Origin: Eledone cirrhosa | Lineage: Eukaryota | Length of the DNA: 64,000 bases | Reading direction: 5' to 3' | Assembly (NCBI GenBank): GCA_964016885.1 | Contig: OZ024742.1 | Coordinates: forward strand, 319,548,001 to 319,612,000 | Shown: piece by piece, positions 452 to 62,561 of the stretch | How positions within the stretch are numbered: position 1 is the first letter of the stretch | Layout of the letters: each line of letters opens with the position of its first letter | Notes under the pieces: generated by a model | What the model was told of the DNA's origin: nothing | Seen by the model: the letters and a program-made list of their open reading frames with translations, nothing else | The model's database searches: none | Translations under genes and position numbers: made by a program

Positions 452-3400
452 GTATATACCTCCATAACATAAGGCATGTGTCAAAACTCAACGATGCTTA
501 AACTTATTTCTATGCAAAGTATATCACGATTTGGCGATATATATTATTCTGAATAATAGTTTGTTTACAAAAATTTATATATATATATTATATATCATCT
601 GAGAAATTTATGTATTGATTTGAGAAAGTGTTTTGAGGAAATACATAAACTGTTAAAAGATGTCTCATAAAATGATTGGTATTTAAGAATAAATAAAACA
701 TGTTGCTGCTCTCGGTTTTATATGTAGATTTAATCACCATTCTGATATCAATCTACCAGGATTACTTCTATGGTTCAAAGTTGTTTGTTTTAAAATCTTC
801 ATATTTAATTTTAAATCATAGGTTTAGGTAAGAACTTTTGTTAAATTATGCACCAAACACCAGCTTAATAATGAAAAAGTTTGTAACATTACTAATTCTC
901 TTTAAATTCTTCATTTGAAAATCATAGGCAGTTTGTTTTATTAGAAGTATGGTAGAAAAAGAGTTAAGTGGAATCATTTTTCAAATTGTATTTAATGCCT
1001 GAACAACTCTGTAAATTCACTAGCTCAATAAAAGTTTGGAATTTTATGTAAGAATGTCTAAATTACGGAAGCTGTACCTAGAAATATCATGAAAGAATAT
1101 GAAATGATGTAGTTTTTGTGCATGTGTCCATCATATCAGAGCCCCGAGCACAGCTTGAAGGGTGGAACTAGTAAAATATCTAATTAGTTTAATATCTTGA
1201 CTGTCCAAGCTATTTTTAAAACAATGAAGACAATGGACACTTAGCTTTTAGGCGGTTGCTTTTATAAACCAATATACAACACCATTTTTTAAAGTAGATT
1301 TGTTTGACCAGTCATTTTCTCTGCAATAGTCTGAAGGATGGATGTTGTAGAATTATAAAAGAATGTAATTAAATATTTTCTACAAGCAAATCTTTTGTAT
1401 AGATTCCCCTTGCTGTTTCTTTCATACACTTTGTTCAAGAGTCCCAAAATAACCATAGCAAATAAGACAGACTACATTATTTGGTCTGATAGAAAATCAT
1501 AATTTGATGGAAGTGAAGCATTTTCCTGTAAATATCGCTACTTTTCATAATGATCAAATTATATGAATAAAACCATTTGCAAGTCTATATTCTTGTGATC
1601 ACCCATATTAACACTTTCTATTCCCTCCCTAAAAGTTTTCTTTGTTACAAGTAATCTCTTTTTCTTTCTCTTTCTCTCATTCATTTTTAGTCTGTTAACT
1701 TTAATAAATGGTTCCAGCAACCATTCATGTACTTAATGGTTTCATTTTTATTTTGTCTACAGTCATTTTAATAGGAATTGAACTTCCATTTTCTTCTCAA
1801 TTTTTAATATTGTTTTACAAGTTTAACATACACGCACGCACATGTAAAAACAAATTCTTCTTCTTCCTATCTGTAAATTAGAAAATCTTATTGTATTTAT
1901 AAAGGGAAAAAAATCTTAAAACCAAACTTTTGTTTTGGAAGAAAAATAAAACTATTTATTTCAACAGTAATGCATTTTATCTGATTTATCTCTGTAAATA
2001 ATTTGATTTTTAATTAGAACATATCACACATATGCATGCACACACGATAAAACGGGTTGCAGTTAAATGTTTCACAGCTTGTTTGCTGTTACTCTAAAAA
2101 AAAAAAAAAAATACCTTTATCTTTCAACCCATAAAGAGAACTTATAGCAATCTGGTATTTATGCCAAACATAAACCAAATATTAACAGAAATGACCAATC
2201 TGCTTAGCAGCATAATTAATTGAATAATGCACAAATAATACTTATGCACAACATATATTAAAATATTTAAGATAGATTTAAACTAGTCATTCCAGTTATG
2301 TTCTGGTTTGTTTTTGACATAAATGGTAATTTGCTACATGTTCTTTATGTAAGTGCAATGAAAAGGTTACTTGTATTTTGATGAACAACCAACTAGCTTG
2401 AAACAATCTTATGTTTTCTGTGAACGAAGATAAAAAATCTGTTTACACTTGTTTTGACAAGGCCTATAAATTAAAATTCTAATTGGGCCTCCATATGTAC
2501 TTAAGTCAAGTCCTTGCAACCTTTCTATCTTGTTTTTTTTGTGTCACTTATGTAAGTTTAGCTGGACTCTTACAAGTTAGCATCTCGTAGGGGGTTTCTA
2601 AGATATTTTAATGATAGGGGCCCCAGTCCTATCATGCTTTTTTGTCTACTCTATAATAACATTAATAGTGTCATAGCTGGCTGAATGGGATGAAAGACAC
2701 TAACTTTCTGCTCAATCCCAATTCATATGCCATTACCAACTCTGTACTTTGTCCCCAAGAAAGACATATAAGAACAGATTACTGCTACTGTATGTTAAGG
2801 ATTTTATTATTTTGCAACAGACGGTTCAAATTTAGTATTCTAAAGAGAGATATGCTTCACAAATTGTCTAGCGCTTTGAACAGTGTTACAAACATTGTGA
2901 AAGTTGATATAATAATTTGAGTGAAGTGAAAGATTAGGGAAAAGGCTTCTTGCTTAGTTTGGAAGGTGTAACACAATTGAGAGAGCAAGAGTATTTTAGA
3001 ATATCTTTATTAGAAAATACATTGTTTTTAATAGTGGTAAAAGAGACAGAGAAGGCTATTAGTTTTAAAATATTGGTGATTGTAGACTTGCTTATTGGTT
3101 TCGTTGATTTTGCTTAGATACAGCAGTTTAGTGTGTGTGCGCGAGTGCATGTATGCGTGTTGGGATTGTCTGGTTCAAGATTGTCTATTACCTTTTGCTC
3201 TATCAAATAAAGAAATTTCTAATGTTGCAGTTGCTTTGCATTTATTTTAGGGTCATAGTTGACTGAAATTTTGTCAATAGATATGACTTTTCTTTGTAAT
3301 ATTTCCAATTTATAAATTCTTTTTTTTTTTTTTTTTTTTTTAATATGTAAAATTCAAATGAAGTTCAATCTAGTTTTTTTCCTTTCCCCCCTTCCAGGCA

Positions 3401-3639
3401 ATATTAAAATTTCTTCTAACATTTCCTGGCTTTATCCCAACACTGCATAATCAATCTGTTGCCTGCACATTCCCCCTTTTCTATTCTATACCTTTCAGGA
3501 ACCATCAAGTAAAAGTGTGTAGTTTTATGGTTAGAGTGTTGGATCATAAGGTCTTGTTTACTTCCTGGATTGGGTAGCTCATTATTTCCTGGAAAAAGAT
3601 ATTTCATTTCATGATGCCCCAGCCCACTTGAAGCTTATA

Positions 3640-3880
3640 AAGCCTGTCTCAAGCCCAGGACCTCTTCAAACTGGAGTTTATCCTGATCTCATAGGCATTA
3701 AGCAGCTTGGAGTACAAGACCTCTTCTTGGACAGAACACCAATCCATCACTTGGTTGGTTAACATTCAGCTACTGCTGCTACTCATTTTCATCTGAGTTG
3801 ATAGGAGCCACATGAAATAAAGTATTTTAGTCAAGAACACAATGTGTCATTCATTCAAGGAATTGAACTCACACCTTAAA
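3640..3880 (-). mobile_element. Degenerate SINE
   Basis: Shares the GGAGCNACATGAAATAAAGT...CAAG...GAATTGAACTCACA block with S1. A similar copy lies at about 34810-35070. Confidence 0.55.
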
Positions 3881-4929
3881 CAGGCTAAAAATAAATAAAA
3901 AGATAAATTAGTCACAAACATCTATTAATTACAAATAATTGTGATAAGATTCTGTGTATCCGTATTTAAAACCAGTTTTTAATAATTCTCACCATTTTGG
4001 TGATTGTTGTCATTGTTATCTTACTATCTCTTTTATGACAGTCTTGGAGTTAGATGAGTCAACACAGACAGTATATATATATCCATCCATGTTAGAGCAA
4101 TATTGTTGATCACTATGGTAATAGAAACATTTTATATAGTTCTGTTACCCCCCCCCCCTCTTGCCAACATAATTTTAAACAAATAAGGTTCTGTTGTTTT
4201 TTGTTGCTGTTTCTCTCTCTTTTAATCTTGGTTGACAAAATGAACGTAATGCTCATCAATTAGACAATGTATATTAGGTTAAAGAGAAAATCCCCCTTCC
4301 TCTCACAAACACAACAGTAGAGATTCTTATTAAATTGTGTATCTTAGCTGAAATATTCATTTTATTATTACATTGTCTCTTTCTATAAAGTTTTATTAGA
4401 ACTCTGTCAGTCTCTTTGATGATATACTAATCTGAATAAACAAATTGCTAAAATGTATACATATAACCCCCCCCCCCCCCCCCACACACACACACCCATC
4501 GTTTTGCGTCTATTTCTTTGGGTTTAAGGAAAAGATGCCAAGTTGAATTTGTTTTCATCAGAAACACATTTGAGAATTGTTTTTATTGCTTCTTAGACAG
4601 ACTTGCTTATCTGAAGCATTAGTATGCATTGTTTAACCTCTCAGAAACCAAAATTGTATTTAATAGAATTTCTACTTGTTTAATATGTATTACTCTAGGT
4701 AATAGAAGCATCTTAGCCAGTGTGGTAATGAAAATGTCAAATCTTGTCATACCCATTACTCAGTGTTTTTACTAGGTGAAAGCATTTGGTCTAGTAGTCA
4801 TGACCCACAATGGATTTGATTTCTGGGACAGGTCACCAATTGTGTTCATGTTGATTTTCATGATATGCCTGAAACCCTAAGAAACCTCTTATAGGAGGAC
4901 AAATAACTAAGCAAAGGTTTGAGTTATAA

Positions 4930-5790
4930 ATTTCATTAGAGAAAGGGTCAAATTAGATGAGATGCAGTTTGGTTTTGTGCCTGGGAAAAGTACAACAGAT
5001 GCCCTCTTAGTGAGATAACTAAAGAGAGGTTCTTAGAGAAGAACAAGCCACTATACTTAGCTTTTGTTAACCTAGAGAAGGCCTTTGATAGAGTACCCCG
5101 ATCTGTCATCTGGTGGCCCCTAAGGAAACTAGGTGTAGAGGAATGGCTTGTGAGGACAGTGCAAGCTATGTACAGGGGTGCTGTTAGTAAAGTGAGAGTA
5201 GGAATGAGTTTAGTGAGGAATTCCAGATACAAGTAGGAGTGCATCAGGGTTCGGTCATCAACCTGCTCTTGTTCATTATAGTCCTCCAAGCCATAACAGA
5301 GGAGTTTAAGACTGACTGGCCATGGGAACTTCTCTATGACAATCTGGTACTTATAGCAGAATCAGTAGAGCTAGAAAATAAATTCTGACTATGGAAACAG
5401 CAGTTGGAATCAAGAGGACTGAGAGTGAACCTAGCTAAGACTAAAGTGTTGATAAGTAGAAAAGAGGACAAAACTCTGATTCCATCAGGGAAATGGCCAT
5501 GTTCGATATGTAGAAAAGGAGTTGGCATAAATTCTATAAAATGTACACAATGCAGTACGCAAGAGATATAGTAGCAAAAAATCCCAGAAGGAAGATGCAA
5601 TAGAGGAAGACCACGGAAAACATGGGCGGAGGTGGTGAGAGCTGACCTCTTCAGATTGCTGAAGCTCACGGAGGAGATTACGAAGGGCTATGACGAATGG
5701 AGAGATGTTGTGCTGAATAGGACCTGTCCCACTCTTGCAAGCAAGGAAAAATGGACGTAAAATGATGATGATGATGATGATGATGATGAT
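4930..5790 (+). mobile_element. RTE LINE fragment: 5'-truncated, internally deleted, (GAT)n tail
   Basis: Degenerate EMQFGFV, LYLAFVNLEKAFDRVPR and CSICRKGVG segments match the RT at 55856-57190. The sequence then jumps to GRPRKTW and the tail GGACGTAAAA(TGA)n. Confidence 0.88.
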
Positions 5791-7109
5791 TCCAGCATTC
5801 TGTTCTCTCAGTTTGAATCCACTCAGGGTCAGCTTTGCCATTAATCATTCAGAATCGATAAATTAAGTACTTGTCCAAGATAGTGGATTGGTAGAATTGT
5901 TAAAGTGTTGGGACACAATACTTTGCAGTATCACTTTTTGCTCTTTGCAATCTGAGTTTGACTGAGATGTCACTGGCACCACACTGTACCAACTCATGTC
6001 TTACCATTCCCTTGGATAACCTCAGTGATGTGAAAAGGGAAGACTTACATCTGCCACCTGTTAGTCTTTCACACAACAACAAAAAAAAAAAAAGTAGGAA
6101 TTTGGCACAGAAATGCAGTGGGCTAGATAAATAGTTCTCAATGAGTTTTGATTTTTGTCCTTCTTAAAATAGTGGTCTACTTGACAGTCTTCATACTCAC
6201 CACGAGGTTCTTTTTGAGGCAATGTTTTATGACCAAGTGTCCTAGAAACCTTGCCAAACAAAGAGTTGGGAGGACCATTCAGTTGAGAACAATATCTTAA
6301 CATCAGTATGAGTGGCTGGTTATGGACGGTTTGAAATGCTAAAGGGTTAAAGATGACAGCTTGCTTCTGAGAAACATTGCTGAAATCATAATGAGATAGG
6401 AAAGCTATTTTTATTTTGCACACTGTTAGAGTGGCTATTTTATATTAGTGAAACAAAATCAGTGTTATTCTGCTGGTGGCTGCTACTAAACATATACTGA
6501 TGCTATCTATATAAAGAACAAGTTAACCTGCCAAATCTTTAAAAAAAAAAAAAGTTCTTCTGTTCCAATCTGGTAGTCATAGCATTCACTTTGATATTTC
6601 TATTATGCCTTTCTTCTCTTCCATTCCCACTTGCAACAGCACCCTATCTAAATACTCTTCTTATTTGGAGTGGTATATTCTTATAATCCGGCTTGTATAA
6701 AGTTTGGTGTTTTCATATAAAACAAAGTTAAATTTAGTGCTGCTTTGTTGAACCCAAGTTTACATAGCTTTGTTTTATCAGAATATTTTAAATGTAAGAA
6801 AGTAGACACTGGATGAGTTAATATTTTTCATAGACATGTTTCTACATCATTTTACCTTCCTCTGTGTATTTGTAATGCCTTCCCATCTATCTGAATCTGC
6901 AGTTTGTTTAAGGAAAAACAAAACCATGAACAGTAGAAATTGCAGTTTTTAGCCTAAAACCGTGTTTTTTTTTTTTTTTTTTTTTTTTTTTCCCCTTTGG
7001 TAACTAAATTATGTCTAGAAATTGACTTGAGAAAATGTCTGCTTTAATTCCTTTTTTTTCCCCCTTTGCAATTTGGACAGTAATATACATTCCACTTTAT
7101 ATATATATA

Positions 7110-11786: not shown

Positions 11787-12168
11787 TTAGGAAACTAGGG
11801 GTGGACAAGTAGCTTGTGCGAGTAGTACAAGCCAAGTACAGAGGCATAGTCAGCAAAGTTAAAATTAATAATGACTATAGTGTGGCGTTTAGCATGCAAG
11901 TTGGGGTCCACCAGGTGCCTGTCCTTGGCCCTCTACTGTTTATTATCATCTTCCAGGCTATAACAGAAGAGTTCAAAACCGGGTGCCCTTGGGAACTCCT
12001 GTATGCTGATGATCAAACTCCCATAGCTGAATCTATGGCAGAACTAGAGAAAAAGTTCCTGACCTGGAAGCATAACCTAGAATCAAAAGTTCTTAAAGTC
12101 AACTTTGCAAAGACCAAAGTTCTAGTAAGTAGTAAGGAAAAATGGACATTAAACGGTGATGATGATGA
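11787..12168 (+). mobile_element. RTE RT core fragment joined directly to the (GAT)n tail
   Basis: GVHQ...LLFIII..FKTGCPWELLYADD..NFAKTKVL followed by GGACATTAAACGGTGATGATGATG. Confidence 0.88.
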
Positions 12169-16366: not shown

Positions 16367-16628
16367 TTAACCCTTTAGTGTTCAAACCGCCCGAAACTGG
16401 CCAAAAATAATTCCCCTTCATCTGTTCAAACCGCTCGAAACCGGCTGATAACACCCACACTAAAATATCGTTCTAGAAATAAACAAACCATCATTAAAAT
16501 CTCGCCAATTCGAGATTACTGCGAGATTTGGTCCTTACCACAAAAATTAACACTTAAATAGTGAAACAACTTAAAACAACATGTGTTTTTTTTTTGTTGA
16601 AAGTAGAACAGATTTTTTGTGTATCAAC

Positions 16629-17120
16629 ATGGCTTGTGAAAGTAGCGATACCGACTTTGAAAGTTTTACACACGACGACATTCAGAATGAACAAGAATCA
16701 AAAGATAATATTAGTGATTTATCTTCAAATGAATCAGATGTTTACATTTCTGAAATTTCATCCGACGATGATTGTTGTTTTGAAAGTGAAAACGAAATAG
16801 ATCTCCAGGACGCCATTGAAAATATTACAGCAACGAGGTTGAAAAATACCACACCAATATATGTTCCCGATTTTATTCAAAATACTGGTCCACAACACAC
16901 ATTAGCTCCCGATGCTAAAGCACTGGATTATTCCTTTTTGTTTTTACCACAAACTTTCTTCAAAGTTGTGGCAGAAGAGATTAATCGATATGCCCAACAA
17001 CAGATTTCAAATCGAGGAAAACCCGATCTGTTTGGCGACTGACAGATGCTGCGGAAATGCAAGCATTTTTTACCATAAATATGATGTTCAGTATAAAACA
17101 ATTTCCAAGACTGTGGAAAT
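16629..17120 (+). pseudogene. piggyBac transposase N-terminal remnant (frameshifted, truncated)
   Basis: Acidic N-terminus MACESSDTDFESF.., then DYSFLFLPQTFFKVVAEEINRYAQQ. After a frameshift: TDAAEMQAFFTINMMF. No DDD core. Confidence 0.78.
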
Positions 17121-18674: not shown

Positions 18675-19550
18675 CTAGCAGAATGGCCCGGCGTTGCTCG
18701 GGCTTCTAAACATAGATTGGCATGTTTATCCCTCCTTTCTGAAACAGTACAGAGAAGTACGGAATACCTCAGCCTGGGGATGGTGTCTACATTTTGTGCT
18801 TAGGCAAATAATTTTCCATTAAGATTTTTCAAAAGCATGTAATTGTGTTGTTGTTTCTGCTGCTGTTGGTGTGATAACAGCTGTTGGTCGTACTACTAAC
18901 ACAGTCTCGTCCTTCTTCTGCCTCGTCTACCTAAACAATGATTGTAGCACCTCCTTGTACACAATGTTCCTTGTTCTTCCGTGTCGGGCATATGCAAAAA
19001 GAGATTTGTCTTGCTTCCCACTCTTGAGCAGCCAACGTATAGTTGCCCTTGTGAAAAACATGACTCTTCCAAAAGAAGACCAGCAACAGCCAGGGTCTGA
19101 CCCTGGGATTTGTTGATAGACATTGCAAAGCTGACACGGTTCGGCGAATGGTTCGTTGGTTGTCTGTTCAAGTGCTCTTCAGGTGGCAGTACGTTCAGCA
19201 TCTTGCGACCGTCAAATAGCAGATTCCACTGACGATTCGTTTGCCCGTCTTGTTCCTTTTCTTGCCGCTTTTGCAGTATTTCGGCCAATGGAGTATATCT
19301 TCCTTTGAGGCATGACCTAAAAGCAGGACGAAGTACAGTAAGACTAACTAGTAGAGTAAGGAGTAAACTCACCAGTGATACATGTGATTTCCGAATCGTT
19401 GACTATGTAATTGCTGGCCTTGTGCCAAAAGGGACTTTTTGGGTGGCATATCGGCAATGACGATGAGCCGTCTGTGCTTTTGTGAAATAAATACATTTGT
19501 TTATATTTTGTTTTTGTGTATGCAAAAATATCTGTACACGAATATATAAT
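18675..19550 (-). mobile_element. Non-autonomous Helitron (3' end defined, 5' end not located)
   Basis: Minus-strand 3' hairpin GCCCGAGCAACGCCGGGC (18686-18703) followed by terminal CTAG (18675-18678). PIF1 helicase C-terminal motifs are present. Confidence 0.88.
18940..19313 (-). pseudogene. Helitron Rep-helicase remnant: N-terminus fused to PIF1 C-terminus
   Basis: SFAMSINKSQGQTL and CFSQGQLYVGCSRV are PIF1-family motifs V/VI. An upstream frame reads MPQRKIYSIGRNTAKAARKGTRRANES from ATG 19313. Confidence 0.8.
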
Positions 19551-19965
19551 TATATATATATATACCCCCTGACCCCAAGCACACGAACACACACACCCTC
19601 TTACACCACCCACTCTACACACCCTACCACCACTGACCCCCACTCACACCCGCATTCAACCCTTTCTCCACCTCCAGTATACTAACACCCCACTAACACC
19701 CCCTTCACCACACACACACACACACACACCAGTACACTCCACACCCTTCTCTCCCCGCACCACCCACACCCTTTCTCAAACACTCAGACATCCCACTAAC
19801 ACCTCTACTAATACACCCCCCTCACTCCAACTTTCACATCTACCCATCCTCTCCCCTGTCCACCGCACCTCCGCACACACTGACACACTTACTTTCTTCA
19901 CTTACCATTCTACCCTACTGCTGCTATGCCTCTCTGACCACCTCCCCGCACACACAGACACACAA

Positions 19966-20277
19966 CCCTCCTCCTGCCTTGACCTTCTGACCACTTCCTG
20001 TTGCGCGCGCACCCCACATCTCCCCTCTTCCGACCAATCTCTTCCCTCCTCCTGCCTTGACCTTCTGACCACTTCCTGTTGCGCGCGCACCCCACATCTC
20101 CCCTCTTCCGACCAATCTCTTCCCTCCTCCTGCCTTGACCTTCTGACCACTTCCTGTTGCGCGCGCACCCCACATCTCCCCTCTTCCGACCAATCTCTTC
20201 CCTCCTCCTGCCTTGACCTTCTGACCACTTCCTGTTGCGCGCGCACCCCACATCTCCCCTCTTTCGACCAATCTCTT
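19966..20277. repeat. Tandem repeat, 4 x 78 bp, almost perfect
   Basis: Units start at 19966, 20044, 20122 and 20200. Confidence 0.95.
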
Positions 20278-20857
20278 CACGGATTACACATATGTGAACC
20301 TTGATCTCGAGAATCTACCGCATCCCAAGGATTTTACTCAGCATTCCACCACATCTTTTTACGGAATTACCTTTACGACTCACCCCCAGACATACACCCC
20401 AAAAAAATTTTTTTCCCACACGCCACCTACATCCACAACACGCATAAACACTACACACACGTGCGTACCACCACATATTTACACATTCAGCCTCCGGAAT
20501 CCTCTCCCCCCCCCCACCCCTCTATCCACACACGCGCACACACTCCGACCTACACCCCACCCCACACACACCTCTTCCTGAACATGCAACTCCGTTCTCC
20601 CCCCAACCCTTGCTTTCACATACACACACCACCTTCAGTCCTCCCCGCTCAGACACCCCGTCTCTTTCTCCCCACTCCACCCGCCACCACCCCTACACGC
20701 CCCACATCCTTCCACCACCTGTTTTACCCCATTTTAATTTTATTTTGATCATGCCTTTATTTTTAATTTCATTTGCACCGTTTCCTCTCACCCCCTTTTT
20801 GCTATATGTCTCTCCACCACTCCCCTACACACCCTTTGAACTCTCTTCCCACACACT

Positions 20858-29395: not shown

Positions 29396-30382
29396 CTTTA
29401 TATATATATAAAGGTAAAATGCAGATTAACACAGATAAGCGATACACCTCTGTATGCTGAAATAAGCCTCGTTATAGGATATTCTACCCTGTACTTGGAA
29501 AACCCAAAACGATATATACTCATGCTAGCATGGAAGATGAACGTTAAACGATGATGATGATATATATATAAAATAGTGCTAGTGCCTCAATAAATGCTCC
29601 TATTATGCTCTGTAAAGTGAACAAGACGTGTTTCCTTCAGCCTGTCTTGTCTCGAACTATAACTCATCCACCTTATGGCACCTTATAATGATGGTGATGA
29701 GGATATATATATTTATTGTGAGTTCATTCTGTAAGAAATTGTTTAATTATAGAGAATGGCCTGTCCATTCAAAATGACTTGGGAATTCATTGATAAATTT
29801 CCTACCGAAAGACTTTGAACTTTGTATTTAATAGTAAAATATTCCACTTTGATCTTCGCCAAAAGGCAAATAATTAATAAATGTGATTGTGTACGTTGCT
29901 TGCTAAAAATGGTGGGTCACAACGCTTTATATAAGTACTTAGACACTTCTGCTGGCAAAAATGACAGCTTTTAAACTTATATATAACATGTTTTTGATTG
30001 GTTCACTGAAAGGTTGGCACACCGATCTAAAATGAGGAGGCATCAGTTTAATTGTTGTTTACTTTAAGTATGGAAAGATATTGAAGTGATAGCTGAGATG
30101 TAAATAATTTCATTATTGAATACTTTTGTTCTGTCAATGCAAACATATATTTTGATAGTGATGAGTATCTTTGAAAAGCAGGTTCGTTTTTAAGTTTATG
30201 TGATGTCAATAATTTGGTCAAGCTGTTGTGTTTTGTTTGTTTTATCTGGTTTGTATAATATCATTTTCTTTATAACCAAAAAACTACATTTTATTCTTAA
30301 TTTTCTTAAGAACTAATTTGAAATAATTTTAATATTGATAGCGTGATCTTAATTTCTTTTCTCTTTTCTTTTTCCTTTCAAG

Positions 30383-30695
30383 GATGAGGTCGTTGTTGAG
30401 AGCACAGAGTCGTCATCGCCGGTGGTACAGCAGTCAGTGCCGGCATCATCATCATCTACATCATCATCTACATCGTCATCATCATTATCATCATCATCAT
30501 CATCATCATTATCACCTCCAACACCACCACCACCACCACAACAACAGCAGACAAACCCTACAGTTGATTGTAGGGAACTGCATGTGGATGAGGTAGCATT
30601 GCTGTCTTCTGGTGCTGCCATCATTAAAGATGGTGAGACTCCAGAAATGGCACTGCTGAAGGCAGCTATTGGGAAGGACAAGAAGAAAGACAAAG
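30383..30695 (+). CDS. Internal coding exon A of an unidentified host gene (Ser/Pro/Gln-rich), phase 0 to phase 1
   Basis: Long polypyrimidine tract with TTCAAG| acceptor. Open frame DEVVVESTESSSPVVQQSVPASSS..VDCRELHVDEVALLSSGAAIIKDGETPEMALLKAAIGKDKKKDK. Donor AAG|GTGATT. GC-richer than its flanks. Confidence 0.75.
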
Positions 30696-30738
30696 GTGAT
30701 TATTATTATTATTATTATTATCATTAATAAAGAAATCA

Positions 30739-36451: not shown

Positions 36452-37335
36452 CAATGGTTGGCTGAAAAGTTCATAGGCTGACCAAGACGCTCTCATAGAA
36501 TATGACCAAACAAAGTTTATTTTTCAGCATCGCCCCCCCCCCCCCCCCACCCCCAGTCCACACACTTCTTCCATCACTGTTGCAGTTTTTGGATCCCATT
36601 GGTGAAAAAGCTTTCATCCTGTGGTAAAAAAAGTCATCATCAGCAGATATGGCATCATCATCATTGCGACACTGGTTCCCAGCCAAGTGTGTTTTTTTCA
36701 TATCTGGGAACAAATGATAGTCAGATGGGGCCAAATCAGGAGAGTATGGAGGGTGATCAACTAGTTCAAAGCCACAGTCACACACAGTAATCCTTGAAAC
36801 CAAGAACTTGCTGGAACATTGTCCTGATGAAACAAGACACTTTTCATCAGTTATCCTGGGTGTTTGGTTTTGATAGCTTTTCTTAACTGCCTCAACAAGT
36901 TGGCATAGTACTCTCCAATAATAGTGTGGCCCGTTTGAAGATAGTCAATAAACACAATGCCTTTTGTATCCCCAAAAACTAAGCCTATCACTTTCCCTGT
37001 AGATGAAACGACCTTGGCCTTCTTTGAAGAGGGCTGTTTCTACTGTATGGATTGTCTTTGTCTCTGACTCAAGTGATGAACCCAAAACTGGTCCTGGGTT
37101 AGGAAATGTTCAAGGAATCCAGCTGGATCTGCCTCAAACAATGTTAGATTTTCCCGTGATGTGATCAATCTGTTGCACTTTTGATCAGGTGTCAGAAGAC
37201 GTGACACACACTGACCAGAAACCTTCGTCATGTCAAGTTCATCGTACAGAATATTCACAACTCTTTCACGGGATATGCTAATGACATTAGCTATTTGATT
37301 TATTGTTAATCGCCTGTCATCCATTACCATGTCTT
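36452..37335 (-). mobile_element. Decayed mariner transposon
   Basis: DRRLTINQIA..ISRERV..IL, CVSRLLT (cf. WVPRLLT) and HPPYSPDLAPSDYHLFP. TIR-like CAATGGTTGGCTGAAAAGTTCATAGGCTGAC follows a TA. Confidence 0.88.
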
Positions 37336-37934
37336 GCATCAACTTTCCATGTAAGCATGAGTTGGACAGGTTGTTATAGTCAAAGTTAGTTAATGCTTTC
37401 CTAAATGGGTTGGAGGGCCATGCCCCCACTCATAAGTTCCTAGAAATAAAATATGAAAAATGGCAGTTAGATATAGCAACATTAAGATAGTTATTCATTT
37501 TGTAAAAGCATCTTTACCAATAAGTTGGGCAGTATCATTTTGGAAGAAAGTTAATCTATCAAAATAAAATTAAATGAAATACAAGTGTGAATATTTAGAT
37601 ACAGTTTAATAGGTGGCTGAGTCGAGTGTCTTGTGGTATTTATTCATATCTAACTTCAAATCCCCATCATGGTTAACTTTACCTTTCATTTTTTCCAAGT
37701 CAATAAAATAAAATAAAGTACCAATTCAAAACAATATATTGGTAGATTCAAAGACTAAGATATTTTTTACTATTAATAATCTACAGATACCTCAGCTAGT
37801 GCTTTTCTATTTCGTATTTCTCACTATTGAAAAATATAGCTTCAGAAGATAGAACGGTTGAGTTGATAAAGTATTAGTCTTGTTACATGTGACTTTGTAT
37901 CTATAGTACTCATGTAGGCAAGTTTTTAAGTAAA

Positions 37935-44003: not shown

Positions 44004-44306
44004 ATGGAGGTAAATTTACCTTTGAAAAGTTACCACGAGGTAACCCTCCCCCAACCTCAGATAATATTCTTGGAAAATATAACAATATTAGCATCTTTTG
44101 TTTTTCCTTAGCTTTTGCCCCTTTGACAGATTTTTCTTATGTCAGAAAAAGGTTTGACAAATCAGGTTGTCACATGTTGACATTTCAAGATGATATATTT
44201 TTCTGAGAACATTTAATCCATGTTTCCATAGATTATCAGCTTCCAGATTTTATCAAAAGACGGTCACCCATTGTTGTTGTTTGTTTTTGTTTTTTTCTTC
44301 TTACAG

Positions 44307-44684
44307 TATGTGGAGGAGGTGGAGGTGGCGGGGGAGAGGGAGGAGAAAGTTTAGCCAGTACTGATAGTCAATCTCAGGAAGTCCTAGTCCAGCAGCTGCC
44401 TGTGACCACGTCTCCCGTTTTGCAGCAGTCGAATGGGGAACAGCCGGTTCAGGTGGCTGGTACTGAATCCAAAGATGTCGTTTCCTTGGGTCCAGCCAGC
44501 GTGGTTACTACCATGTCCAACGTGGAAACCTCTAGCTCGATCTCCACAGTTCCCAGAACTTTACCAGCCAGCACAGACAGAGGTGATACTGTGAAGGAAG
44601 CAGCAATTCCAATAACAAGCACCCCACCTGTGTCAGACATCCCTGGCAGACGAAATATCAGGCAGGCTTTGCGACCTAAGCGAT
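44307..44684 (+). CDS. Internal coding exon B of the same host gene (Gly/Ser/Thr/Pro-rich), phase 1 to phase 1
   Basis: Polypyrimidine tract with TTACAG| acceptor. Frame CGGGGGGGGEGGESLASTDSQSQEVLVQQLPVTT...IPGRRNIRQALRPKR. Donor |GTAAAT. Phase matches the end of exon A. Confidence 0.75.
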
Positions 44685-44792
44685 GTAAATATTCCAATTA
44701 TTTTCCATTTTTTTCTTTGATCTTTTTGTGGCTATAAAACAGAACCAGCAGCCTCAGTCTTTACGCGTTTGTTTATCTTTTCCCTCCCCAGA

Positions 44793-51172: not shown

Positions 51173-52113
51173 TATATACATATGTACTCAGTTGCCTTCA
51201 AAACCTCGTGTAATTCTGTATTGCACTAGTAATTGAATCAGTTGTTAAATTTTCCTATCTCTAGGCACAAACTTGAATTTATTGTTAATGTGTTCACCTT
51301 GTAGTGTATTTCATTAGAAATATGGTAATGAAACAGTATTGTAGCCTCAATGAATCATAGATATGTATATTCTTTAGAGTAAAGGTGTAAATGTTTGTGT
51401 GAATCTAAGTTACTGAACTATTGATTGCACAATCTTTGTTTTAGTAATTCTAAGCCAGACACCAATTTACCTGCTAGTTTACTGCCTAGCTGTAAAACTA
51501 GGTAACACTTTTGCTTTACTTTTTGATATTTATCATTAGGAAAAATAACCCTTTTCATACTAATCTGCCTGAAGTTGTTTATTGGTTCTATGACATAGAG
51601 CTGTTTATTTTGCAAATATGAGCTTTATAAGAAGAAAGTTATTTTATTAAATCTCTGAAAATCTTGAACTGTCTTTCATTAAAAATATGATACTGAAGAG
51701 GTTAAAGCTAATTTTTTTTTTTTTAAATATGCAAATATCCAAATTTCTAACTGGTATTAACCCTTTCATTACTATATTTCTAACAAAAACAGTACCAATA
51801 GTCCACCCTTTACTACCCTTCTTAATGACCATAAGCCATGTGACACTTTTCCCTTTCAAAAATTTGATTGGCAACGATCAGTTCGAGAATTTTTTTTATT
51901 CTGAGAGGTCTCTTCAAAAGCCATTAGTCGCACAGCTATAACTGAACTTTAGCTGCACACCATTCAGCAAAACTGCAGTTGGCACATTGAAGTAAAATTA
52001 GGTAAATTTCTATTTATTATAATGCTCGGTTTGTTTGTAAACAAACATCCCAAATTAAGCCGTACAGTGTTGAAGCAACCATCGTTGCCCTTTTGTTCAA
52101 CACTGACAAAGGA

Positions 52114-52156
52114 ACGATGTACTAGTTTCAAGCTTATTAGCTAGCGTCAGCACCGT
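52114..52156 (-). ncRNA. Degenerate minimal type I hammerhead ribozyme candidate
   Basis: Minus strand ACGGTG-CTGACGC-T-AGCT-AATA-AGCT-T-GAAAC-TA-GTA-CATCGT. Stems I, II and palindromic stem III are present; the core deviates at A9 and the 10.1/11.1 pair. Confidence 0.6.
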
Positions 52157-52384
52157 ATACCTTCTTGCATTATAATAAATGTTCGGTTAATCCATACGTA
52201 CATATATATATGTGTGCATGTATGTATATATATATACATACTACTGTACGTCTATATACATATATGTATGTACGCATACATACTTATATTTAAGTAACAG
52301 CCGTACTAAGAGTGAGAAATGAAATTTTGTTTCATTTTTTCCATATATATATATATACACATACATATACATATATATATATAC

Positions 52385-52426
<42 letters not shown>

Positions 52427-52774
52427 GGAGGCACATGGCTTAGTGGTTAGAGCATTGGCCTTGCAATCGAAAGGTTGTGAGTTCAATTCTCAGACCGGGT
52501 GATGTGTTGTTTCCTTGAGCAAGGCACTTTATTTCACATTGCTCCAGTTTACTCAGCTGTAGAAATGAGATGATAGGGACTGGTGTCCCTATCATTCCAC
52601 TGTAAAGTGGTCGTGGAGGTGCCACGGCAAAAAAGCACCCAGCACTCACTGTAAATGAGGTTGGTGTTAGGAAGGGCATCCAGCTGTAGAAATCAAGCCA
52701 GCATCAGTTCCCATCCCACCCTTGCAAGCAGGGAAAAAGCGGATGTAAAATGAAATGATGATGATGATGATGAT
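52427..52774 (+). mobile_element. Full-length SINE family S1
   Basis: A box TGGCTTAGTGG, B box GAGTTCAATTC, internal 11-bp hairpin ATGATAGGGAC-TGGT-GTCCCTATCAT, RTE-like tail and (GAT)n. Confidence 0.9.
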
Positions 52775-53926: not shown

Positions 53927-53978
<52 letters not shown>

Positions 53979-53979
53979 G

Positions 53980-54060
<81 letters not shown>

Positions 54061-54075
54061 GTATATATATATATG

Positions 54076-54149
<74 letters not shown>

Positions 54150-54151
<2 letters not shown>

Positions 54152-57100
54152 AAACTTCAGAGTTGGTACCATAAATGTAGGCACCCTAAAGGGTCGCGCT
54201 AACGAGGTTGTAGAAATGCTTGAACGTAAGGAGGTCGATGTTTGTTGTATTCAAGAGACCAGGTGGAGGGGTGGGTCTGCTAGATTCATTGGGGGTAAAC
54301 GATGTTATAAGCTTTTCTGGGTGGGAAACGACGATGGGCTGGGTGGAGTAGGAATCATGGTAGCAGAAAAGTGGGCAGATAAGATAATAGACGTAAATAG
54401 AGTGAACGACAGAATAATTAAAATACGACTTGTCCTCAATAGAACTACGGTGACAGTAATATCTGCGTACGCACCCCAATCCAGCCTGCCCGGCACTATA
54501 AAAGACAGATTCTATGAGACACTGTTGCTAACTACCTCCCAAATATCTGACAGTGACTATATAATTATTGCAGGCGACCTAAATGGTCACGTTGGACAAC
54601 ATTGTGACGGCTACGACGAAATCCATGGAGGCTATGGGTTTGGTACTAGAAATGAGGAAGGCTCCAGAATCCTGGAATTCTGTGATGCAAATAACCTAAC
54701 TATCTGTAACACTAACTTCAAAAAACGTGACAATCACCTGATCACCTATAGATCCGGGGAACACACAAGCCAGGTAGATTATATCCTTACCAGAAGACGT
54801 GACAGAGTGTCTGTTGTAAACACTAAATCCCTCCCCCATGAAGAATGCACCTCCCAACATAGACTGATAATTAGTGACCTCATAGTCAGGACGAGACGTA
54901 CTCGACAGCAGAAGAGGACTATCCTCAGGAGAAAAATATGGAAGCTAAAGGACCCCACAGCCAGAAATAAATTTCAAAGCATATTACTTGATGCTTTCGA
55001 CAGTAAGGAAGAACATTTAGAGTCGGACAATATAGAGGGACAGTGGGAATTTCTGAAAGCAAACCTGCTGTTGGCGACAGACGAAGTCTGTGGCTGGAGC
55101 AGGCCTGTAGGCAGGAGGAGAGTAACATGCTGGTGGAACAGTAAGGTGGAGGAGTCAATTAAGGCCAAAAAGCAGGCTTGGAAAGTATGGCGGGATGGGG
55201 GAAGTAGAGTAGACTATCAAGTGGCCAGGAGGGAAGCTAGGAGAGAAGTGTACTTAGCAAGAAGGGAAGCTGAGGAAAGAAAGTTCAAGCATGTTCTACA
55301 ACGCGATTACCAAAAACGTGAGGTGTTCAGGATTGCTAGGCAATGCGTCAAGGAAAACCGTGATATTGTCGGGGAGAAGTGTGTACTTAACGATGATGGC
55401 ATACTTGCCATCACCGACACTGATAAGAAGGTAGCTTGGAAGTGTCACTATGAAAGGCTACTAAATGAGGAGAATAAATGGGAGAAAGACAGTCTCCCCC
55501 ATATCGACCCAATAGAGGGACCAGCAGTGTTAGTCGAGGGGAGTATAATAAGTAAGGCAATCAAGGATTATGAAGACGGGTAAGGCGGCTGGGCCTTCGG
55601 AAATAGTTGCTGAGATGCTGAGGGCATCTGGCACGGTGGGACACACCATGGTCACCCGCATAGTTAACCAAGTCGTACAGAATGGGGTTGTTCCGAAGGA
55701 CTGGCATAGCAGCATCATCGTTAACTGTTATAAGGGTAAAGGGGACGCCCTAGATAGGAGTAACTATAGAGGCATTAAATTAATCGACCAGGTCATGAAG
55801 GTCACGGTTAAAAGTAATAGCGCAACGAATCAGAGAGAGAATTGACCTAGATGAAATGCAGTTCGGGTTTGTGTCAGGCAAAAGTACCACAGACGCTCTT
55901 TTCATAGTACGACAACTACAGGAGAAGTACCTAGCTAAAGGTAAACCCCTCTACTTAGCTTTTGTCGACTTGGAGAAAGCCTTCGACAGAGTCCCCCGCT
56001 CCATTATCTGGTGGGCTCTTAGAAAACTAGGTGTTGACGAATGGCTTGTGAGAGCTATACAAGCCATGTATAAAGAAACAGTCAGCAAGGTTAGAATTAA
56101 CAACGAATATAGTGAAGAGTTTAGCGTAAAAGTTGGCGTCCATCAGGGCTCTGTTCTCAGCCCCCTACTATTTATTATTGCCCTTCAGGCTATAACAGAG
56201 GAGTTCAAGACAGGCTGCCCATGGGAACTCCTATACGCAGACGACCTGACACTCATAGCGGAATCAATGGCCGAGCTAGAGAAGAAATTCCAAACATGGA
56301 AGCACGGCCTAGAGTCAAAAGGACTTAAAATTAACCTGGCTAAGACCAAAGTTCTAGTTTGTAGGAAAGAAAACCAGGCGGCAGTCCCTTCTGGGAAATG
56401 GTCGTGCTCGGTGTGTAGGAAAGGCGTAGGTAGAAACTCCATTTTATGTCCTAAATGCAAAGTATGGGTGCATAAAAGATGTAGTGGGATCACAGGTAAG
56501 CTAACTAAGAACATAGATTTTACATGTGGCCGGTGTTCTGGTGCAATAAGTAGCAGCAAGTGCCCACAAAATACTAGCTCTTTCAATTGCGCAGAGGGTT
56601 CTATAGAAATAGTGGACAGCTTCCGTTACCTGGGCGATAAAATCAGCAGTGGGGGAGGGTGCTCTGAAAGTACTGTAGCTAGAGTCAGAACTGGTTGGAA
56701 AAAGTTCAGAGAGCTTATACCACTATTAGCTGCTAAAGGGTTCTCCCTAAAAATGAAAGGCAGGTTGTACGATGCCTGCATACGAACAGCAATGTTGCAT
56801 GGCAGTGAGACCTGGGCATTGTGTGCAGCGGATATACGCAGACTAGAGAGGAACGAAGCTTGCATGCTCTGCTGGATGTGTAACAGTAATATACGTGAAC
56901 GGCAAAGCATAAACGAACTAAGGAAAAAATTAGAGATAAGAGGGATCAGATGTTGTTTACTCGAGAGAAGGCTACGTTGGTATGGACACGTGATGCGCAT
57001 GAAAGTCGATAGCTGTATAACAAAGTGCAGGGCAATAAAGATAGACGGTAGTCATGGAATAGGCAGACCTAGAAAAACCTGGGACGAGCTGATAAACTCC

Positions 57101-57190
57101 GACATCACACACTTACACCTCTCCAAGACAATGTCACTGGACCGAGACCTTTGGCGGTACTCAGTAACAGAGAAGACCCGCCTTACCTAA
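54150..57190 (+). pseudogene. APE endonuclease-reverse transcriptase ORF, split into 54150-55583, 55570-55845 and 55856-57190
   Basis: Comparison with copy 2 shows single-base insertions near 55568 and 55808. The start codon is lost into (TA)n. Confidence 0.92.
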
Positions 57191-57576
57191 ATATATAGTA
57201 AAACCTACTCCAGCCAGTAGGCATCTCTAACAAAATACACCCCGTCCCACCACCACCATCCCATCCACACCGCCCCCTTCTATGTAAAGTTATGTTGGTG
57301 CCACACCATCCAGGCCGAAACAAATGAGATCGTGTAGGTGTCACGACAAAAAACACACAGTCCACGCTGTAATGTGGCCGTGTAGGCAACACGGTAAAAA
57401 CCTCCCAGACCCACACTGTAAATGTGGTTGGTGTTAGAAAGGGCATCCAACTGTAGAAAACCTGCCAGACAGTCCTATGCGAGCAAGACAATCACTCTTG
57501 CCTCAAGTGGGAATACCCCCGTCCAAACCCATGCAAGCGTGGAACACGGACGTTAAACGTTGATGATGATGATGAT
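54150..57576 (+). mobile_element. RTE LINE copy 1, near full length, two +1 frameshifts
   Basis: APE domain (GTINVGT, CIQET, AGDLNGH, SQVDY, SQHR), RT (YADD), 3' UTR with subrepeats and a (GAT)n tail. Confidence 0.95.
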
Positions 57577-57612
57577 ATATATGTATATATGTATATGTAT
57601 ATATATATGTAT

Positions 57613-57816
57613 ATCATCATCATTTTCATTTCATTTAACGTCCACTTTTTCCCTGCTTGCAAGGGTGGGACGGGAACTGATTCTGGCTTGATCCTAACAC
57701 CAACCTCATTTACAGTGAGTGCTGGGTGCTTTTTTGCCGTGGCACCTCCACGACCACTTTGCAGTGGAATGATAGGGACCCCAGTCCCTATCATCTCATT
57801 TCTACAGATGAGTAAA
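57613..57816 (-). mobile_element. 3' half of SINE S1 between the two LINEs
   Basis: Matches 118-331; truncated into (TA)n. Confidence 0.88.
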
Positions 57817-57840
57817 TATATATATGTATATATATATATA

Positions 57841-62561
<4,721 letters not shown>

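Follow-up and report, generated by a model that had tools for sequence, protein, structure and literature searches.

A head-to-head hammerhead repeat in Eledone cirrhosa, a likely retrozyme insertion probably made with the enzymes of a Penelope-like element

Within a stretch of 64,000 nucleotides of the Eledone cirrhosa genome (assembly GCA_964016885.1, contig OZ024742.1, positions 319,548,001 to 319,612,000; hereafter the window), a pair of 14-bp inverted repeats encloses hairpins and a hammerhead motif. This raises the question of whether the enclosed 169 bp form a unit in their own right, as proposed in an earlier note which took them for a copy of a small mobile RNA closed by the inverted repeats. 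The inverted repeats, hairpins and minus-strand hammerhead could be read directly where that note had placed them, and the 169 nt (52012-52180) are indeed highly structured, folding far better than shuffled sequences on both strands (z -5.9 for the minus and -6.1 for the plus strand), which is partly a result of the closing inverted repeat. A search of the 3.0-Gb assembly with the 169 nt returned 1246 candidates, the best 40 of which were scored, giving 43 listed matches. Among these, the window alone spans query positions 1 to 169, which speaks against a unit bounded by the inverted repeats. Other long matches listed end at query positions 156-165, and the right-hand inverted repeat is absent from every other match listed. 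The flanks of 29 other fetched loci run on into a longer repeat on both sides, and contigs from three sequencing runs of one sample likewise show the family continuing past both ends of the 169 nt; none of the listed pieces spans the inversion junction of the window copy, an absence that carries no weight against the junction.

Positions 52012-52348 of the window represent a single head-to-head inverted copy of a non-coding repeat of about 420-490 nt, numbered here by a real 428-nt monomer (locus L017:1229-1656). Because both arms hold monomer positions 415-428, the 14-bp inverted repeat is, to judge by sequence, the scar of this copy's inversion and no terminal repeat. The closed 169-nt RNA thereby gives way to a monomer of about 428 nt, with the inverted repeat at the inversion junction of a single insertion. 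The two arms overlap by 2 nt at the joint (52167-52168). The copy is laid out as follows.

52012..52168, minus strand: inverted arm, monomer 428 to 273 at 96% identity; 5'-truncated and without the usual outer ~110 nt and (TA)n
52012..52025, unstranded: left 14-bp inverted repeat, monomer 415-428, outer end of the inverted arm
52029..52046, minus strand: small hairpin, 6 bp with a 4-nt loop in the computed fold
52065..52105, minus strand: bulged hairpin on the 3' side of the cleavage site; the family form has 7+5 bp, that of the window copy is longer via a private change
about 52108-52112 with 52160-52163, minus strand: distal stem I extension, from pair counts in the family alignment
52114..52156, minus strand: type I hammerhead motif, read directly from the sequence; predicted cleavage after GUA, between 52120 and 52119
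52144, minus strand: A9-to-C change in the catalytic core, private to the window copy
52167..52348, plus strand: forward arm, monomer 415-428 then 1-166 at 95% identity; includes the TA/CA-rich hairpin region
52167..52180, unstranded: right 14-bp inverted repeat, monomer 415-428, start of the forward arm
52290..52346, plus strand: 56-nt "tail" between two fixed 3' ends (about 110 and 166), containing a near-palindromic hairpin
52343..52425, unstranded: (TA)n-rich tract entered by the 3' end, the presumed target

The window hammerhead is composed of stem I (ACGGTG/CATCGT), the core CTGACGC, GAAA, an ACTAGT palindrome, and stem II (AGCT-AATA-AGCT) sitting on a U·U pair. Both hairpins described previously are present with altered dimensions. 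The 2-nt loop given for the small one is too tight, and for the bulged one part of the 10-bp arm is private: at 52071-52074 the window reads TGAAG where relatives have TTTAG-like letters, and a 7-bp helix remains in the family without this change. With the private change, the two hairpin arms become perfectly complementary, as happens when a quasi-palindrome is corrected. Two core substitutions had been taken as decay. A9C is private, with 4 exact matches in the genome compared with 10,046 for the intact core, whereas the U·U pair at 10.1/11.1 is common to the family and no sign of decay. No target-site duplication is visible at the window copy and its left outer end is non-canonical. Since its one hammerhead carries A9C, the upstream region is absent and the left end is abnormal, the copy is likely inactive, as the earlier note had supposed, and as a dead fragment is itself of little interest.

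The family behind it is of high copy number and has kept its hammerhead core intact. Searched exactly, the intact 31-nt core is matched 10,046 times in the genome (control 0), and 28,570 times (control 10) when position 7 and helix II are left free. By eye, the first 100 of these matches listed differ almost only at position 7 and in loop 2; helix II, though left free in the pattern, is preserved in about 97 of them. The same core is found in subfamilies that differ elsewhere. Tandem copies, which the earlier note had suggested looking for, occur as arrays with periods of 424 (7.5 copies, 99% matches) and 484 (5.2 copies, 97% matches), sister subfamilies having periods of 424, 466 and 484, and consecutive tandem units each carry a type I hammerhead. 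Six aligned units of one array (L192) are almost identical and show a period-2 alternation over five units, which fits a dimeric template or a DNA-level duplication. At another locus (L189, 2040-5830), different subfamilies are nested inside each other. On direct reading, the monomer is non-coding, with no RT/GIY-YIG ORF and no LTR, PBS or PPT; the only 80-aa frames over the copies are simple-repeat or chance frames. We thus see a high-copy hammerhead repeat of the retrozyme/Penelope-related kind, in keeping with the earlier proposal of a small non-coding, ribozyme-bearing mobile element. Newt satellite 2 and Schistosoma Sm-alpha are tandem hammerhead repeats like the present family. Satellite 2 has an snRNA-type promoter, of which a putative promoter of the repeat is reminiscent: an octamer lies about 90 nt upstream of the core and a TATA-like palindrome about 45 nt. 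The octamer also falls inside a predicted RNA hairpin. Our literature searches found no paper describing this repeat family; Repbase, Dfam and the supplements of PMC7229834 lay outside their scope and may list the host.

The family's motif has the type I core CUGANGA / GAAA / NUH with three helices, helix I being open. Its helix sizes are those which PMC4209133, in the part available, defines as the "canonical" metazoan type I (helix I 6 bp, helix II 4 bp, helix III 1-2 bp plus a palindromic loop), so that the previous label "minimal" does not apply. We aligned 26 copies from several subfamilies, 24 of which had been picked for an exact core, and drew the structure from the same sequences. Helices are paired in 97-100% of cells, with 97% of cells paired over the 63 proposed pairs. 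Covariation, proposed earlier as a check on the stems, was seen at a single stem I pair, which varies on both sides across subfamilies (U·G 10, A-U 8, G·U 5, C-G 1, unpaired 2; n=26), and for one cell in another helix; other changes are mostly one-sided wobbles. Stems II and III are invariant in the 26 copies, partly because the sampling of loci had fixed the core and these stems. Given this choice of copies and the origin of the structure in the aligned sequences themselves, support from covariation is modest. An Rfam hammerhead match, another check that had been proposed, was obtained neither in the window (E≤5) nor in an intact copy (E≤10).

For a single motif, the minimum-energy fold is an inactive register with z near 0, and a 420-nt monomer from cut site to cut site reaches z -7.1, to which the TA hairpins contribute. 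The inactive register is in line with PMC4209133, in whose available text a short palindromic helix III is said to require a dimer. An axolotl retrozyme hammerhead with a U·U pair shows weak cleavage as a monomer and better cleavage as a dimer in the portion of PMC7229834 at hand. By analogy with these two sources, the repeat's hammerhead would be expected to act as a dimer.

To characterize how copies end, we took the first 100 core matches on one contig (C1), which gave 80 loci after dropping 8 overlapping fetches. Pieces below 79% identity or shorter than 120 nt were dropped, as was one insertion cut by the locus edge, leaving 84 insertions: 48 in a single orientation, 35 inverted with 3' ends outward and 1 complex. 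They are 179-2147 nt long (median 592), and 66 exceed one monomer. Truncation is one-sided and its polarity agrees with the hammerhead strand. In hammerhead sense, the 3' end of single-orientation copies falls at about 110 in 18 cases, at about 166 in 26 and elsewhere in 4, which defines two fixed 3' ends 56 nt apart. Their 5' ends are ragged and spread over positions 10-423; a clustering at a start site near position 273 was considered and is not borne out in the 84 insertions. Two canonical ends are present in 25 of the 35 inverted insertions, and all 25 have one of each; were the ends independent, this would have a probability of about 1e-8 by hand calculation. The remaining 10 have one non-canonical outer end, as in the window copy. 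An inverted insertion of about 2.4 + 7.5 units matching at 97-99% (L194) again combines the two canonical ends. The top 29 matches to the window comprise 12 direct insertions, 13 one-of-each, 1 scored as 110/110, the window itself and 2 complex cases; the insertion scored 110/110 has a further piece reaching 166.

Insertion sites and joints were inspected as well. Read by eye, 25 aligned 166-ends are followed by (TA)3 or more in 22 cases (window background 6.5%), by (TC)n in 2 and by T-rich sequence in 1. At inversion joints, BLAST ends overlap by 1-6 nt in 24 of 53 cases, and the arms of inverted insertions overlap by hundreds of monomer positions. Where both arms hold a hammerhead (n=15), the two arms belong to the same subfamily block in 14 insertions, are alike at every diagnostic site read in 12 and have private variants in common in 4, again by eye. 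As the arms are nearly always of the same subfamily, both usually come from one RNA or source. One 9-bp target duplication was seen at a non-microsatellite target (L202); (TA)n targets would mask others.

These ends resemble those of Penelope-like elements (PLEs). According to the available text of PMC8557442, PLEs show partial tandems, inverted 5'-truncated copies, a one-sided tail of 30-40 bp and a bias towards microsatellites. In the part of PMC11167929 at hand, both strands of AT-rich DNA are nicked by a PLE protein in vitro and then extended, and reverse transcription starts at two internal RNA sites, the gap between them being the tail; hammerhead cleavage proved dispensable for insertion, and no difference between the strands was found in the start site. 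In the accessible portion of a preprint (bioRxiv 10.64898/2026.07.22.740005), animal retrozymes are argued to derive from PLEs as non-autonomous elements, on the grounds of co-occurrence and similar pLTRs and on a sample without molluscs. The preprint also reports cleavage in 1 of 9 predicted frog retrozyme dimers in vitro and none in the other 8.

PLEs are likewise present in E. cirrhosa. A search for GIY-YIG gave 10,596 first-look candidates, of which the best 150 were scored. Fetched PLE loci include RT + GIY-YIG ORFs with their own hammerheads, different from that of the repeat, and the hammerhead of a further PLE family differs as well; the clade names Neptune-like and Hydra-like used here are our assignments from sequence motifs. 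In a Neptune-like, ORF-bearing family (the L081 family), about 60 nt separate two 3' ends, and copies are flanked by (TA)n. Its inverted insertions have exactly one tail in 9 of 10 cases and two tails in none: 3 insertions with untailed ends were read directly and 7 were judged from exact motif matches, 6 of these being one-tailed and the seventh matching no tail motif. Members of this family (L081, L086, L089, L092, L149) carry a hammerhead-like motif with U3/A8 for C3/G8 and an ACCGGT palindrome, and similar variants are found in other PLE families of the genome.

Taken together, we consider it very probable that the feature in question is the inverted arm of one likely inactive non-LTR retrozyme insertion, which was likely copied in trans by a PLE RT/GIY-YIG protein. 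This reading rests on the two 3' ends with a tail on one side only (25/25 and L194), on 5' truncation, inverted 5'-truncated copies and microsatellite targets, and on the same one-tail asymmetry in the L081 PLE family of the same genome. Against it count the missing Rfam match, the inactive register of the minimum-energy fold, the single covarying hammerhead pair, the lack of a parent PLE among the loci described below and the fact that the hammerheads read in PLE loci differ from that of the repeat. Further counter-evidence is a 56-nt tail longer than the published 30-40 bp, the non-canonical outer end of 10/35 inverted insertions and of the window copy, and the 8/9 frog dimers that were not cleaved.

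Among other explanations, the repeat might be the detached pLTR of an autonomous PLE not yet found, its copies being mostly 5'-truncated pieces. Its end anatomy is the same as that of PLEs, an autonomous family of the genome often has short inverted copies that consist of nothing but the pLTR, and frog retrozymes resemble pLTRs in the available text of the preprint (bioRxiv 10.64898/2026.07.22.740005). Yet copies longer than one monomer continue into another monomer and none of the copies read continues into an ORF of its own; at the sole ORF junction found, the repeat has inserted into a PLE unrelated to it. We regard this origin as improbable. A SINE-like RNA moved by a LINE, such as the RTE-like elements in the window, with inversions arising by twin priming, is less credible still. 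RT-bearing LINE copies do lie at 53928-60762, and LINE copies, too, can have a fixed 3' end, a ragged 5' end, microsatellites alongside and an inverted 5' part. However, twin priming produces a variable internal start and non-overlapping arms, whereas the second start of the repeat is fixed and its arms overlap extensively, as in the PLE family of the same genome. There is equally little to recommend a DNA-level element (a MITE, a Helitron-like rolling-circle repeat or a satellite spread by recombination) with the hammerhead as a relic. Inverted copies in (TA)n resemble TIR elements and unequal crossover can yield tandem arrays, but repeat copies have neither the shared terminal inverted repeats nor the fixed ends of MITEs; their lengths vary widely, with truncation on one side and a polarity matching the hammerhead strand, and subfamilies that differ elsewhere keep the same core. 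Finally, a 169-nt RNA unit closed by the 14-bp inverted repeats, real as these are and well as the unit folds, can practically be dismissed, given that the right-hand repeat occurs in no other match listed and that both arms simply hold monomer 415-428.

Returning to the PLE-copied retrozyme, we looked for its helper. No parent PLE for the monomer was found among 40 GIY-YIG loci (of >10,000 candidates). These loci contain one unit copy in (TA)n behind a PLE and a second partial copy at a locus edge; other monomer matches, within the coding sequence of the RT, proved fortuitous. A candidate for the helper, though less likely than not, is the L081 family. Its candidacy derives from a similar tail length, the same targets, a 3' resemblance and one head-to-head chimera. 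The apparent resemblance covers ~28 nt of T-rich sequence and aligns the proximal end of the family to the distal end of the unit. In the chimera (L205, 660-1335), a Neptune-like 3' end with its tail is joined head-to-head with a retrozyme copy, with (TA)n on both outer sides; it could also be a nested insertion. Neptune-like 3' ends occur near unit copies with 9 matches in 8 of ~125 loci, compared with 18,951 matches genome-wide. By a rough hand estimate, this is a few times above the expectation from genome density, an excess that can be attributed to shared (TA)n targets.

The ORF junction at L202 was considered as a helper chimera and rejected, being an insertion with the 9-bp target duplication mentioned above. 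There (2800-5870), a unit array lies inside the ORF of a very abundant Hydra-like PLE (54,473 candidates), and the composite also occurs as an inverted arm, as if both had been re-mobilised together. In the flanks of six loci (L010, L031, L052, L091, L202 and L209), (TA)n tracts contain another abundant repeat, again non-coding and with inverted arms, that is possibly a further PLE passenger.

A mechanism can be outlined in which source copies would be transcribed as multimers, possibly driven by the octamer and TATA-like palindrome as a promoter. The hammerheads would then cut, probably best as dimers via the palindromic stem III, and the resulting RNAs may become circular. A PLE protein, which in the case of a lizard element is predicted to form a dimer, would nick both strands of a (TA)n target, and reverse transcription would start at two internal sites, one per strand. 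Should both cDNAs persist, their ragged ends would be joined by short microhomology to give an inverted insertion; should one persist, a plain 5'-truncated copy would result. A more far-reaching version, which we hold to be rather unlikely, is an active, self-promoted retrozyme whose monomeric and dimeric circles are copied in rolling-circle fashion by a Neptune-type dimer from two fixed starts, strictly one per strand. It is hinted at by the 10-unit inverted insertion (97-99%), the period-2 array and the one Neptune/retrozyme chimera. If true, a retrozyme and its helper would be identified as a pair for the first time, and two-strand PLE priming could be read out on the scale of a genome.

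The case for PLE mobilisation of animal retrozymes has until now been built on co-occurrence, on hammerheads common to both and on similar pLTRs. In the present genome, the PLE-specific two-site tail signature is seen at scale in a non-coding hammerhead repeat, and the strict one-of-each rule of its inverted insertions holds for an ORF-bearing PLE as well. The repeat thus appears, from its sequence, to be a further non-LTR retrozyme behaving like a non-autonomous PLE, and the structure of its ends supports the proposed retrozyme-PLE link with unusual clarity. It also offers a short, young and very abundant RNA substrate for the study of PLE priming and retrozyme circles.

With the metazoan non-LTR retrozymes of coral, mussel and axolotl, as far as the available parts of PMC7229834 and bioRxiv 10.64898/2026.07.22.740005 describe them, the repeat shares the U·U at the base of helix II (axolotl HHR_Amex2). 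Its monomer of 420-490 nt is at or above the top of their 150-450 range, it adds an internal TA/CA microsatellite, and it is known here from DNA sequence alone. Three traits of the repeat have no counterpart in the descriptions given by these texts: its targeting of (TA)n, its many head-to-head inversions and its pair of fixed 3' ends. EN+ PLEs (Neptune, Penelope/Poseidon, Naiad and Hydra, in the accessible text of PMC8557442, PMC11167929 and PMC4209133) are similar in forming partial tandems, in having an inverted 5'-truncated copy and a tail on one side only, in targeting microsatellites or AT-rich DNA, and in a hammerhead with a palindromic helix III. In contrast to them, the repeat has no ORF, whole-monomer tandems, a tail of 56 nt versus 30-40, a canonical instead of a minimal hammerhead, and no sequence parent found. 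Chlamys elements such as MRC1 are also non-autonomous PLE passengers with multicopy head-to-tail insertions. In the part of PMC8557442 at hand, however, these belong to a green-algal clade and have 3' sequence in common with autonomous families, whereas the repeat shows only the short T-rich, Neptune-like 3' resemblance.

The remainder of the window holds other mobile elements. A tRNA-derived SINE (52427-52770) directly follows the (TA)n tract, its tRNA model score of 28.1 bits being just below the cut-off. Two tandem LINE copies of ~3.57 kb, about 95% alike, occupy 53928-57190 and about 57500-60762. They contain an RT, a weak PHD-finger match and an endonuclease-like N-terminal frame; we take them to be RTE-like, and older relatives lie at about 5020-5340 and 11790-12090. 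An open 357-aa frame at 61364-62437 (plus strand) has the DDE_3 domain of a Tc1/mariner-type transposase, and 36471-37429 presumably holds mariner-like remnants, judging by motif. Frames at 18896-19402 (minus strand) and 16575-17042 (plus strand), without a Pfam hit at E 0.01, are assumed to resemble a Helitron PIF1 helicase end and a piggyBac N-terminus, respectively. Low-complexity segments at 30353-30727 and 44207-44737 (plus strand), also without a Pfam hit, are probable host-gene exons; the window element may be intronic, with its hammerhead antisense to the host gene. A 78-bp tandem repeat with near-identical central copies is found at 19888-20355.
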